This document shows, in pieces, positions 31,775-33,468 of a DNA stretch of 33,468 nucleotides. This DNA comes from a virus. The notes under the pieces were generated by a model. The model made no database searches. It was not told the origin of the DNA and saw nothing but the letters and a program-made list of their open reading frames with translations. Position 1 is the stretch's first letter, and every line of letters begins with the position of its first letter. The stretch lies in UHGV virus genome UHGV-0120943, one strand, 5' to 3'. The position numbers and the translations under genes are program-made.

Positions 31775-32194
31775 ATGGTCGTTAAAAATGCTCTTGCCTG
31801 TGGGATTATGCTTGCTCTTGTCGGTTGTGCTACAAAACCTGTCTCAAATGAACAAGCCACTCCTGTTCCTGAAAAACAAATTATCAGCACCGCGTTACTC
31901 GAAAAACGAGACGGTACGGGAGAGGTGATCATCAAGCGTGACTCGGGTTTCTTTGGAAGCGCGTGCTTTTCCCGTGTTTATGTTGATGGTAAAGAGGTGG
32001 CAGATTTAGGTACAGCTCAGAAAGTCGTTGTATACCCAACGATTGGTGATCATGTCTTCAGCGCGTGGCCGAAAGGGGTATGTGGTGGTGGTATGAGCGA
32101 ACAGGCGGGCAAGGTGACAACAGATCGTACTTTGATGTATCGCATAGGGTATGGATCAAACGGTGAATATGGAATTTACCCAACCGCGTTTTAA
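31775..32194 (+). CDS. Lipoprotein of unknown function
   Basis: 139 aa with signal peptide and lipobox LVGC; low-GC gene directly after the tail module. Its 3' end is duplicated at 33414-33468. Confidence 0.65.
   Translation: MVVKNALACGIMLALVGCATKPVSNEQATPVPEKQIISTALLEKRDGTGEVIIKRDSGFFGSACFSRVYVDGKEVADLGTAQKVVVYPTIGDHVFSAWPKGVCGGGMSEQAGKVTTDRTLMYRIGYGSNGEYGIYPTAF
32105..32159. repeat. Direct repeat copy 1 (55 bp, within the lipoprotein 3' end)
   Basis: Exact 55-bp match to 33414-33468. Confidence 0.9.
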
Positions 32195-32238
32195 TTTGTG
32201 TTGGGGTATGCGAAGGGGCATGCAGCCCCTTCAGTCCA

Positions 32239-32994
32239 TCAGTTCAAACGGTTGCGGAAATTTTCGATGCACTTCGACTCGAACTTTTCTAAGGCCAGCA
32301 ATCCAGCGTGTTCTTTACGCATAACTTCGAGAAATTCCTGACGCATTTCCTCAAGAAATGGTTCAACTTCCTCGTTGCGCCGGATGACTCGTTTGATCAT
32401 CTCTGTTTCCATGTCAGCTATAAATCGATTGGCTGCACAAGTTATGCGCATGATGCGACGAATTTCATCTGCCATTTCAGGCAGGTCGCTGATACTAAAC
32501 GAATGTGGAGATTTCACGCCGGTCATTTTTCGCAGGCAGTGCCAAACACCGCTGCTCCAGGCCTGTTTATAACGGAATTGACCGGTCATGATGTGGATCA
32601 GGTGCTTCAGATTGAGCATGTCTTTTGCAGTCAACTCATTTGATTGCGCCGCAGGGCGTTCATACCTGCCGGTCTTACGGATCGCGGGTAGGACTTCGTT
32701 GAATACCCAATCCTGGAACTGTTTTGCTTCCGGCTTATTACTGCGGAAGATCACACGGTAGAGGTTCGGTTCGTTGATAAAGGAAATCTGCTGCTGACCG
32801 CCGTTTGTAGGGGTGTCCGTTTTACGTACCCCCTTCGAGTCGAGGATTTCTGCGGCTACACGGCGTGGGTTTGCAATGGTCAGAACCTCGCAAACATCTT
32901 TCAGGCAGAACCACGGTTCACCATCGATAACCTGAATACGCACGTCATGGGTTTCGTGGAAAGAGAATGAAACCGGAGTAGTTACTGTAGTCAT
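32239..32994 (-). CDS. Bro-N domain antirepressor-like protein
   Basis: 251 aa; N-terminal FSFHETHDVRIQVIDGEPWFCLKDVCEVL ... NGGQQQISFINEPNLYRVIFRSNKPEAKQFQDWVFNEVLPAIRKTG is a typical Bro-N domain. Confidence 0.8.
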   Translation of the reverse strand: MTTVTTPVSFSFHETHDVRIQVIDGEPWFCLKDVCEVLTIANPRRVAAEILDSKGVRKTDTPTNGGQQQISFINEPNLYRVIFRSNKPEAKQFQDWVFNEVLPAIRKTGRYERPAAQSNELTAKDMLNLKHLIHIMTGQFRYKQAWSSGVWHCLRKMTGVKSPHSFSISDLPEMADEIRRIMRITCAANRFIADMETEMIKRVIRRNEEVEPFLEEMRQEFLEVMRKEHAGLLALEKFESKCIENFRNRLN

Positions 32995-33413
32995 GATGAC
33001 CTCTTTTGCTTTCTTCGAATTACCACTGACGGAGTGGTGCCGGGAGGTTCGAAACGGCGCAAAAGAGACCGCGGACTTATTTCCCGTAAGGGTGTTGTAT
33101 TAGTCGCCCTCCCGACATTGATCGGGATGTGACCGCACTCAGTGCAATCACTGAATTACAGGCATAAAAAATCCAACACTATCGGGGTTGGTTCTGACCG
33201 CTTTTGCTGAGGTTTCGACGCCTCCTGAAACAAACAGTATAGGAATCCGATCAGGAGGTCAACAGCAACTTTTGCCGTCTATAAAAATGAATTGCATATC
33301 TCTGCAAAAGGTCTTCAACAACTACTTATCCGGAATACCCGTAACATGAAAATCTTCATCACCGATCTACAAAAAGCAGAGCTTGAACGTCTTCACGATA
33401 CCAGTCGTGATAA

Positions 33414-33468
33414 GCGGGCAAGGTGACAACAGATCGTACTTTGATGTATCGCATAGGGTATGGATCAA
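33414..33468. repeat. Direct repeat copy 2 (55 bp, lipoprotein 3' fragment without start), reaches window end
   Basis: Exact match to 32105-32159; in the lipoprotein frame it is preceded by TGA TAA, so it is a gene fragment. Confidence 0.9.

Follow-up and report, generated by a model that had tools for sequence, protein, structure and literature searches.

Organization of the locus

The window, i.e., the whole stretch of 33,468 nucleotides of the UHGV virus genome UHGV-0120943, carries near its right end an intact lipoprotein gene (31775-32194, plus strand; 139 aa, lipobox LALVGC) followed by an intact gene for a Bro-N antirepressor (32239-32994, minus strand; 251 aa). The lipoprotein matches the PHROG family phrog_890, "lipoprotein" (E = 2e-52), over residues 4-139, which include the C-terminus encoded by the repeat described below; a Pfam search with this ORF gave no match. 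The Bro-N product is recognized by Pfam (PF02498, E = 8e-25) and by the PHROG "anti-repressor Ant" families (best E = 2e-47). The exact protein occurs in 126 blocks of the indexed public assemblies, at the same locus wherever the locus was read, and at a DNA identity of at least 85% the gene is present in one of 5426 complete E. coli genomes, that of GF131. In viral contigs, its nearest relatives are approximately 45-60% identical along most of the protein, and the best segment of one locus attains 72%.

A direct repeat brackets the antirepressor gene. Its two copies in the window, 32105-32159 and 33414-33468, are identical at all 55 nt, as a preliminary description of this DNA had stated; the 33-kb window has no other long direct repeat, and the odds of a random 55-mer identity within 33 kb are negligible. 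Copy 1 codes for the C-terminal residues of the intact lipoprotein (139 aa). Just upstream of copy 2, the lipoprotein frame is closed by the stop codons TGA TAA (33408-33413), beyond which lies unrelated DNA, so that copy 2 is a 3' gene fragment, as described earlier, and not part of an intact paralogous gene. The 1254-bp interval between the copies consists of the minus-strand Bro-N ORF and its upstream region. Bro-N is the sole gene encoded there, again in agreement with the preliminary description, and none of the Pfam or PHROG matches in the interval is of the integrase type. From left to right, the interval contains a new hairpin (32212-32232) that leads into the Bro-N 3' end, the Bro-N gene, a leader block (32987-33340, minus strand) that matches the last 351 bp at the right end of an ISL3-family insertion sequence (IS) with 87.9% identity, and a 73-bp piece (33341-33413, plus strand), within which a listed 26-codon ORF starts (MKIFITDLQKAELERLHDTSRDKRAR*; 33346-33426, plus strand).

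Extent of the repeat

The chromosome of E. coli GF131 is 100% identical to window positions 31600-33468, and the whole window aligns with it as a 99%/93%/99% mosaic. In GF131 and in contig L007 the repeat is 106 bp long. The 55 nt are not a biological length, because the end of the window cuts copy 2. In GF131, 68 nt are exact, mismatches fall at offsets 68, 72, 80, and 96, and the copies diverge from offset 106. The left copy, R1 (32105-32213, plus strand), takes in the final 29 lipoprotein codons with the stop codon, then a short spacer and the left terminator arm (GGGGTATGCGA, 32203-32213, plus strand); the right copy, R2, is a lipoprotein 3' stump of 106 nt, of which the leading 55 nt fall within the window (33414-33468, plus strand). 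The repeat is thus an imperfect duplication of approximately 106-109 bp, covering the lipoprotein 3' end and the left terminator arm, with R1 part of a complete gene and R2 a dead stump.

Identity between the two copies is 96%, and the reading frame of R2 stays open. Concerted evolution of R1 and R2 was considered and rejected, because the copies group by position and not by genome: R2 copies from different genomes are 0-1 nt apart, and R1 and R2 of the same genome differ by 2-4 nt. The first ~120 nt of the window are a multicopy InsQ/TnpB fragment, placing both window ends in repeated DNA, and in 22 index blocks of the public assemblies the longest contig with this Bro-N gene is shorter than 2 kb. 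Most likely, the window is a short-read contig and the length of 55 is the assembler's k-mer overlap at the contig end.

Prophage ends and the one-copy form

Both repeat copies are internal to a prophage of ~43 kb. Its real attL and attR are a 126-bp duplication of the 3' half of a tRNA-Leu gene (leuZ) plus terminator. At attL, ~40 kb to the left, intact leuZ adjoins a tyrosine integrase gene, the only integrase gene of the prophage. In GF131, attR begins ~255 bp past the window end, and the order to the right of copy 2 is lipoprotein stop codon, terminator, ~200 bp, the leuZ-repeat attR, and chromosomal yecA. In L001, the host junction is the leuZ repeat (14125-14250), and ARAGORN searches of L001 and L004 found no full tRNA at attR but 3' fragments only, as expected of an attR. 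GF131 also encodes a cI-like repressor (WP_000853106.1).

The DNA flanking both repeat copies is prophage DNA common to a one-copy form of the locus (98% identity over 387 nt downstream). This form, with the same prophage end and without Bro-N, is present in ~430 complete E. coli genomes and four phage records, in the order gpD, lipoprotein, terminator, attR; in this common form of the prophage, the tail-side arm ends with the lipoprotein gene. Between gpD and attR, otherwise collinear prophages have four architectures: the lipoprotein gene only; lipoprotein, Bro-N, and stump; a tail-fibre-N gene with extra ORFs, lipoprotein, Bro-N, and stump; or tail-fibre-N and stump. Homology between right ends of the leuZ type and of the yodB type ends ~20 nt past the terminator, and the repeat therefore sits at a natural module border.

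Three joints bound the pieces of the interval

Similarity switches abruptly at three joints, j1, j2, and j3, each of which is fixed to the nucleotide by alignment. Joint j1 (32213/32214) is non-homologous and falls within the ancestral terminator of the lipoprotein gene, in its loop, at the point where R1, R2, the single-copy form, and the SE11 prophage part in the alignment; the terminator arm of R1 carries the GCGA allele of the SE11-type terminator. No alternative context for the Bro-N 3' flank, which would identify the other parent of j1, was found among species-representative genomes, and among complete E. coli genomes this flank was found in GF131 alone.

Joint j2 (33340/33341) falls exactly at the right terminal inverted repeat (IR) of the ISL3-family IS (33317-33340, plus strand; one mismatch), and the match of the window to the IS stops at the tip of this repeat. 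Two full copies of the 2.6-kb IS have 25-nt IRs and 8-bp target-site duplications (CATAAAAC and TAAAAAAA) and encode a 440-aa ISL3 transposase. The leader block is present in 13 copies in one genome and, elsewhere, also upstream of KilA-N and ORF6N/P22AR genes; four contexts part right after ...GAATACCC at the IS end. Only the right IR was found in the window, which contains no left IR (up to six mismatches allowed) and no transposase gene. The window thus holds an IS remnant, the right ~350 bp, and not an IS.

Joint j3 (33413/33414) fuses the 73-bp piece to the stump. The same piece, fused at the same position, is common to the prophages of SE11, C41, and TUM11353 at yodB, which have neither an intact lipoprotein gene nor the cassette. 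The SE11-type lipoprotein 3' remnant is decayed, with 79% identity and an in-frame stop on translation. The j3 fusion appears to be older, since related prophages at another att site share it. A parent gene for the 73-bp "MKIF" piece was found neither by tblastn against phages nor with an exact pattern against viral contigs nor with a degenerate pattern against species-representative genomes; a first guess, the N-terminus of an IS630-type transposase, is unsupported. Taken together, the interval is a patchwork of the Bro-N ORF, the 354-bp IS right end including its terminal IR, and the 73-bp piece fused to R2.

A very probable origin of the repeat in serial module exchange

We consider it very probable that the repeat is the scar of serial module exchange in an accessory ("moron") slot of the leuZ prophage, between the gpD-like last tail gene and attR. 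As a plausible sequence of events, the lipoprotein gene would have lost its 5' two-thirds in one lineage (j3), an IS bearing the antirepressor cassette would then have transposed just upstream of the resulting stump (j2), and an illegitimate joint would finally have replaced the transposase side of the IS, importing an intact lipoprotein gene (j1). With an intact gene imported beside the old stump, the stump becomes a partial second copy. We infer the order j3, j2, j1; searches for intermediates recovered neither a full IS beside the 73-bp piece nor a second context for the Bro-N 3' flank. The identity of R2 to intact alleles is 96-100%, compared with 79% for the SE11 stump, and this far better preservation means that, if the stump is old, a later homologous exchange must have refreshed it from an intact allele. 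Otherwise, j3 would have arisen twice at the same nucleotide, which is unlikely.

The preliminary description had taken the repeat as a possible footprint of site-specific integration. On such a reading, the interval and one repeat copy together (1.3 kb) would form a small integrative element or satellite, or would mark a tandem prophage, inserted into the lipoprotein 3' end with the repeat as att site. By the Campbell model, tyrosine-integrase prophages duplicate the 3' end of a tRNA gene as attL and attR, and the present locus resembles this arrangement in that direct repeats of a gene 3' end surround an insert, the first 68 nt of the repeat are identical, and a one-copy "empty" allele is common. 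However, no recombinase accompanies the lipoprotein repeat. It lies within the prophage, and its borders are an IS terminus and an older fusion that is also found in prophages without the insert; the genuine att duplication of this prophage is that of leuZ, next to the integrase gene. Extension of the sequence to the right in GF131, which had been proposed as a check, showed no integrase and no second prophage but attR and yecA after ~200 bp, thereby arguing against both an att boundary and a tandem integration. Comparison with an uninterrupted lipoprotein locus, also proposed, did recover the one-copy form, but recombination predicts the same allele, which fits integration and homologous or illegitimate recombination equally well. 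Moreover, over its 106 bp the repeat has mismatches clustered in the right half and its copies group by position across genomes. We therefore regard integration as very improbable, and a recombination junction is the only one of the three readings offered in the preliminary description that holds.

Copy 2 stops exactly at the window end after exactly 55 nt, a common de Bruijn k, and repeats occupy both window ends, so that copy 2 and its junction might be thought a mis-join or graph loop absent from real genomes. The length of 55 alone is plausibly artefactual. Yet R1, interval, and R2 continue through to yecA in a complete genome and in many independent long contigs (up to >1 Mb), and the diverged lineages L008 and L009 have them as well, which leaves an assembly artefact hardly credible. 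An origin of the repeat by local tandem duplication of the lipoprotein 3' region in this lineage, through slippage or unequal crossing-over, with the cassette inserted between the copies later, would agree with the 96% identity of the copies, their 68 exact nucleotides, and the open frame of R2; we nevertheless judge it unlikely, since j3 is nucleotide-for-nucleotide the same in SE11-type prophages without R1, the R1 and R2 sequences of a given genome resemble alleles of other genomes at least as closely as they resemble one another, and a foreign 73-bp piece at the border is unexpected. The exact layout, with R1 and R2 on either side of the interval, and the one-copy allele in the population are also predicted by a Campbell-type homologous insertion of a circle, carrying the cassette and one 106-bp copy, into the lipoprotein 3' end, the reverse reaction yielding the one-copy form. 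In E. coli, 68 nt of identity suffice for RecA, and the repeat offers this length. The donor circle, however, must already carry j1 and j3, so that non-homologous events are still needed, and our searches found no donor. In addition, a single crossover between R1 (A,T,C,T at the four variable sites) and R2 (C,C,T,C) of GF131 does not yield the one-copy allele of ST131 (A,C,C,T). Such an insertion is, in our assessment, quite improbable.

Under serial module exchange, the repeats have no function of their own, although their 68 nt of exact identity could allow RecA-dependent loss of the cassette, restoring the one-copy form. Mosaic joints and "moron" slots have reportedly been described for lambdoid and HK97-type phages by Hendrix, Juhala, and colleagues. 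The present locus shares with such mosaicism the sharp switches of similarity, a slot of variable cargo bordered by the last tail gene and att, gene stumps left by non-homologous joints, and cargo with its own leader and hairpin. It differs in that one joint is a demonstrable IS terminus and that the stump duplicates its intact neighbour gene, creating a direct repeat that mimics an att duplication. In itself, the repeat is one more case of phage mosaicism with little wider import. It nonetheless serves as a warning that a direct repeat of a gene 3' end touching a contig end may mimic an att site and that its apparent length may equal the assembler k, and it illustrates that a simple-looking "moron" can be built up from three unrelated segments through transposition and illegitimate joints.

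A structured leader RNA and putative control of the antirepressor gene

The leader block contains a full-length match to the Rfam model of sRNA-Xcc1 (RF02221; 69.3 bits against a gathering score of 53, E = 5e-12) at 33031-33116 on the minus strand, 36 nt upstream of the Bro-N ATG. The C4 model (RF01695) gave no match at E ≤ 1 in 31500-33468. In the predicted fold, the loop of hairpin 2 (CUCUUUUGC, 33059-33067, minus strand) is a 9-nt perfect complement of a "b2"-like target (GCAAAAGAG, 33001-33009, minus strand) that overlaps the Bro-N Shine-Dalgarno at its start; a complement of 9 nt was reached by 6 of 2000 shuffled spacers. A "b1"-like copy of the target (GCAAAAGCGGTCAG, 33194-33207, minus strand) lies 77 nt upstream of the RNA. 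We compared loops and targets by a test of the longest perfect complement with controls, the whole-sequence RNAduplex energies being marginally informative. Nine hits, representing seven distinct loop/target pairs, have perfect complements of 7-9 nt, cognate matches are mostly longer than non-cognate ones, and bona fide C4 loci, used as a positive control, show the same complement pattern. In five of six loci, a b1-like copy 65-79 nt upstream co-varies with the loop. At the same position upstream of Bro-N relatives, either C4 or sRNA-Xcc1 is found.

These features resemble the immI operon of phages P1 and P7 (RF01695, RF03163), for which Citron and Schuster are said to have described, in 1990, the c4 antisense RNA, the a1/b1 and a2/b2 sites, and icd-ant. 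In both cases, an RNA with an 87-position Rfam model (the C4 model is equally long) lies just upstream of a same-strand antirepressor gene, its loop complements the ant ribosome-binding region, and a second copy of the target, in the window a candidate b1 site, precedes the RNA. Unlike in immI, the RNA in the window scores as RF02221 and not as C4, the "b2"-like target directly abuts the Bro-N Shine-Dalgarno with no icd-like leader ORF, and the candidate pairing sites are all of the b type. From complementarity and covariation, the Bro-N cassette probably works like P1 immI, and it would then be immI-like in its working yet outside the C4 family. As a plausible mechanism, the sRNA-Xcc1-type RNA of the leader would pair through its hairpin loop with the Bro-N ribosome-binding site, and the antirepressor would stay off.

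The leader block terminates in the right IR of the IS, as in ISL3-family IS copies with passenger genes; unlike in these, the window is without transposase gene and left IR, and the passenger is Bro-N instead of ORF6N/P22AR. We give an even chance to the proposal that the interval is what remains of an immI-like switch borne by an IS, in which an ISL3-family element carries a promoter, b1, a C4-like RNA, b2 at the ribosome-binding site, an antirepressor-type gene, and its transposase gene. The leader RNA, which could be of wider importance than the repeat, suggests a function for the widespread and poorly understood sRNA-Xcc1, that of a C4-type antisense regulator of antirepressor genes, and an IS is identified as the carrier of such an RNA-antirepressor module. 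In the literature searched, we found no link between sRNA-Xcc1 and translational control of an antirepressor gene. If the proposal is true, sRNA-Xcc1 gains a concrete cis/trans antisense role in controlling the translation of antirepressor-type genes, prophage-induction switches are being spread by insertion sequences, and the 106-bp repeats permit the cassette to pop out by homologous recombination, such that the prophage toggles between ant+ and ant-.

A small RNA and leader also lie upstream of the prophage antirepressor in the isrK-anrP-antQ region of Salmonella Gifsy-1 (RF01394), and isrK plus C4 hits precede many Bro-N relatives; unlike in Gifsy-1, isrK has no match in the window. For the leader/Bro-N transcript, a weak candidate promoter, TTGACC-15 nt-TATACT (33236-33262, minus strand), was read by eye, and a scan of 31500-33468 for consensus sigma-70 promoters (requiring a spacer of 16-18 nt) and intrinsic terminators was empty. 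The same region contains no LexA site (CTGT-N8-ACAG with at most one mismatch) near Bro-N, and the sole perfect LexA box of the window lies at 6614-6629.

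The repeated lipoprotein 3' end lies inside a prophage

A scan of the window finds one long direct repeat, an exact 55-nt identity between 32105-32159 and 33414-33468. The first copy (R1) lies in the 3' part of an intact lipoprotein ORF (31775-32194, 139 aa), and since the match of this protein to PHROG phrog_890, 'lipoprotein', covers residues 4-139, the repeat encodes a conserved C-terminus. The second copy (R2) is directly preceded in the lipoprotein frame by TGA TAA (33408-33413), with unrelated sequence further upstream, and is therefore a gene stump; because it touches the last base of the window, 55 nt is a lower bound only. 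The copies lie 1254 bp apart, with a Bro-N ORF of 251 aa on the minus strand of the interval (32239-32994; Pfam PF02498, E 8e-25; PHROG 'anti-repressor Ant' families). The preliminary description had these features right, and offered a prophage or satellite att boundary, a tandem integration or a recombination junction as possible readings.

Rightward extension, the check proposed there, was made with the complete E. coli genome GF131 (NZ_CP172134.1), which is 100% identical to window 31600-33468. In GF131 the full repeat is 106 bp long: the copies are identical for 68 nt, differ at offsets 68, 72, 80 and 96, and diverge beyond the 106 bp. There R2 extends as far as the stop codon of the lipoprotein gene and an entire terminator hairpin, GGGGTATGTGAG-TTTT-CTCATACCCC. 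About 200 bp to the right of this terminator lies a 126-bp repeated sequence, consisting of the 3' 56 nt of the tRNA-Leu gene leuZ and its terminator, after which comes chromosomal yecA; the second copy of the 126-bp sequence belongs to an intact leuZ gene, which adjoins a tyrosine integrase at the prophage's left end. The leuZ repeats at both ends thus mark the att sites of a prophage of about 43 kb. Its attR begins about 255 bp past the end of the window; both copies of the lipoprotein repeat lie within the prophage, and no integrase or second prophage was found to the right of the repeat in the extension through attR to yecA. The evidence does not support the att, satellite or tandem-integration readings; it supports the recombination junction, now divided into three joints of different origin.

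Occurrence of the arrangement

The succession R1-interval-R2 was present in all three distinct places examined, two of which belong to diverged lineages (96.7-97.4% identity in the lipoprotein, 99.7% in the interval), and the order yecA, gap, Bro-N, lipoprotein, tail genes in 24 of 24 contigs read, some longer than 1 Mb; this recurrence rules out a chimeric assembly. An index of public assemblies holds the exact Bro-N protein in 126 blocks. Among 5426 complete E. coli genomes, the Bro-N gene occurs at a DNA identity of at least 85% in GF131 only, and the uninterrupted locus, with a single lipoprotein copy and without Bro-N at the same prophage end, was found in about 430 (many ST131) as well as in four phage records, in the order gpD-like gene, lipoprotein, terminator, attR, yecA.

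In relation to the GF131 prophage, the window is a mosaic (99.8% identity at 1-3928, about 93% in the mid-part, 99.1% at 30349-33468). It begins inside a truncated InsQ/TnpB zinc-ribbon 3' fragment (1-120) present in multiple copies in E. coli (found in 4900 of 5426 genomes, median 2 and up to 7 places per genome; 4 in GF131), which fits a contig break at a repeat, and its last base falls at position 55 of the 68 nt over which the repeat is exact. The window is presumably a short-read contig broken at repeats, 55 being the assembler's probable final k; in 22 index blocks the longest contig with the Bro-N gene is shorter than 2 kb.

Three joints of different origin

The first joint, j1 (32213/32214), follows the left arm of the lipoprotein terminator, GGGGTATGCGA, in which R1 terminates; the next base opens a different hairpin (32212-32232) and the Bro-N 3' end, placing j1 in the loop of the ancestral terminator as a non-homologous joint.

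The second, j2 (33340/33341), is a transposition joint. Window 32987-33340 matches the final 351 bp of an ISL3-family insertion sequence (IS) of 2.6 kb at 87.9% identity, the match ends at the IS tip, and four contexts (the window and three comparison loci, L005, L006 and L079) diverge directly after ...GAATACCC. Full IS copies (722-3343 of L079, from E. coli GMM060; 2651-5311 of L006, from VREC0864) have 25-nt terminal inverted repeats (IRs), GGGTATTCGGGAAATCCTGTTGTT / AACAACTACTTATCCCGAATACCC, and 8-bp target duplications, CATAAAAC (L006) and TAAAAAAA (L079). They encode a 440-aa ISL3 transposase and, upstream of it, a 286-aa antirepressor-type ORF6N/P22AR passenger with an sRNA-Xcc1 leader; 13 places in GMM060 match the leader-block query. 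In the window, the right IR is present at 33317-33340 with one mismatch, and neither the left IR nor the transposase was found. The homology extends 8 nt into the Bro-N ORF and no further; the coding part has thus been exchanged. In a different prophage, a KilA-N gene has the same leader upstream and likewise the right IR only; such right-IR-only remnants adjoin antirepressor-type genes in prophages. In the literature searched, no paper describes an ISL3 element with an antirepressor passenger, and this apparent IS-borne module is among the more interesting by-products of the analysis.

The third, j3 (33413/33414), joins R2 to a 73-bp piece (33341-33413) that carries the start of a 26-codon ORF, MKIFITDLQKAELERLHDTSRDKRAR* (within 33341-33426). 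A related prophage family inserted beside yodB (SE11, C41, TUM11353) carries the same piece, 95.8% identical, and its junction with a lipoprotein 3' remnant falls on the same nucleotide; this remnant is of only 79% identity and has an in-frame stop (our own translation). In these prophages, a tail-fibre-N gene replaces the intact lipoprotein, and Bro-N is missing. As the fusion is common to prophages without the cassette, j3 is older than the cassette. Searches of phages, viral contigs and species-representative genomes returned no homologue of greater length. Homology between right ends of leuZ-type and yodB-type prophages ceases about 20 nt past the terminator, which places the repeat where the late-gene arm meets the att-specific arm.

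The most likely history is j3, then j2, then j1. In one lineage of the prophage family, the 5' two-thirds of the lipoprotein gene would have been lost (j3); an ISL3 element with an antirepressor cassette would then have transposed 5 nt upstream of the small ORF (j2); and finally everything to the left of the antirepressor gene would have been replaced through the illegitimate joint j1, returning an intact lipoprotein gene and leaving the old stump as a partial second copy. A recent local duplication or strong homogenisation is argued against by the clustering of the copies by position and not by genome: R2 copies differ from one another at 0-1 nt and R1 copies at 2-7 nt across genomes, and R1 from R2 at 2-4 nt inside one genome. 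The SE11 stump differs from all R1 and R2 copies at 17-22 nt, and the better preservation of R2 points to its renewal through exchange with an intact allele, for which the initial 15 nt of the repeat, the same in all alleles, could have been the crossover site. The 68-nt identity could allow the cassette to be lost by RecA-dependent recombination, yet a simple single crossover between GF131 R1 and R2 would not yield the common one-copy allele. Four architectures of the slot are seen today, and the arrangement is an ordinary case of phage mosaicism, located in a moron slot. No function is evident for the repeats, which, as a further example of a well-known kind, are of little interest in themselves.

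A leader RNA with C4-like features

The Bro-N gene is preceded on its own strand (minus), 36 nt upstream of the ATG, by a full-length match to sRNA-Xcc1 (RF02221; 33116-33031; 69.3 bits, gathering score 53), the RNA also present in the IS copies and at the KilA-N locus. Among 36 viral-contig loci encoding Bro-N relatives, the position just upstream of the gene is taken by sRNA-Xcc1 in 8 and by the C4 antisense RNA in 13, usually with isrK/a1b1 before C4, the same layout as in P1/P7 immI. Upstream of Bro-N relatives the two RNAs are positionally interchangeable.

The hairpin-2 loop CUCUUUUGC (33059-33067) is perfectly complementary to GCAAAAGAG (33001-33009), a stretch overlapping the first bases of the Bro-N Shine-Dalgarno sequence; a 9-nt complement was reached in only 6 of 2000 shuffled spacers. 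Seven different loop sequences occur over nine sRNA-Xcc1 hits, each with a 7-9-nt perfect complement at the equivalent place before its own gene, so that loop and target co-vary over seven distinct pairs. Bona fide C4 loci, run through the same procedure as a positive comparison, gave the same pattern (7-10 nt). In five of six loci the target recurs at a distance of 65-79 nt upstream of the RNA (33194-33207, minus strand, in the window); this second copy co-varies with the loop and resembles b1 of P1. In the window the hairpin loop is complementary to it as well. These observations support a C4-like mechanism, in which the RNA probably blocks the ribosome-binding site of the antirepressor gene. 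The cassette differs from P1 immI in that it holds no icd-like ORF and in that its RNA, with no RF01695 hit at E<=1, is not a C4 family member by covariance model. Earlier papers place sRNA-Xcc1 ahead of an ORF6N gene in APSE phages and list it together with C4 and isrK in Xylella; in the literature searched, no paper states the mechanistic link. The apparent parallel, drawn from sequence comparison, is likewise among the more interesting by-products.

Other features

At 212-2154 (plus strand), two overlapping ORFs, an AAA_15/AAA_21 ATPase of 394 aa and one of 253 aa, correspond to A and B of the PADLOC candidate defence pair PDC-M25 (E 3e-157 and 5e-96); the ATPase has weak matches to AriA, HEC-01A and Old-type models as well. 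Beside them (2585-3688, minus), a 162-aa ImmA/IrrE-type metallopeptidase (PADLOC capP-like, E 2e-25) is followed by a 201-aa ORF that gave no match, and the two may form a protease/regulator pair. A perfect LexA-box-like palindrome, CTGTATATATATACAG, lies at 6614-6629, inside a mechanically listed ORF (6592-6894, minus) and just upstream of an ORF at 6907 (plus). A small hydrophobic ORF of 86 aa on the opposite strand (30090-30350, minus) separates the gpU-like from the gpX-like tail gene; its equivalent in SE11 and TUM11353 bears the annotation 'superinfection immunity protein', and the ORF resembles a moron within the tail cluster. On L011, a comparison locus from the viral IMG/VR contig UViG_2887885255_000001, four Rfam CRISPR-DR4 repeat matches (L011 2859-2886 and 4450-4597) follow downstream of a Bro-N relative and may represent a phage-borne CRISPR array.
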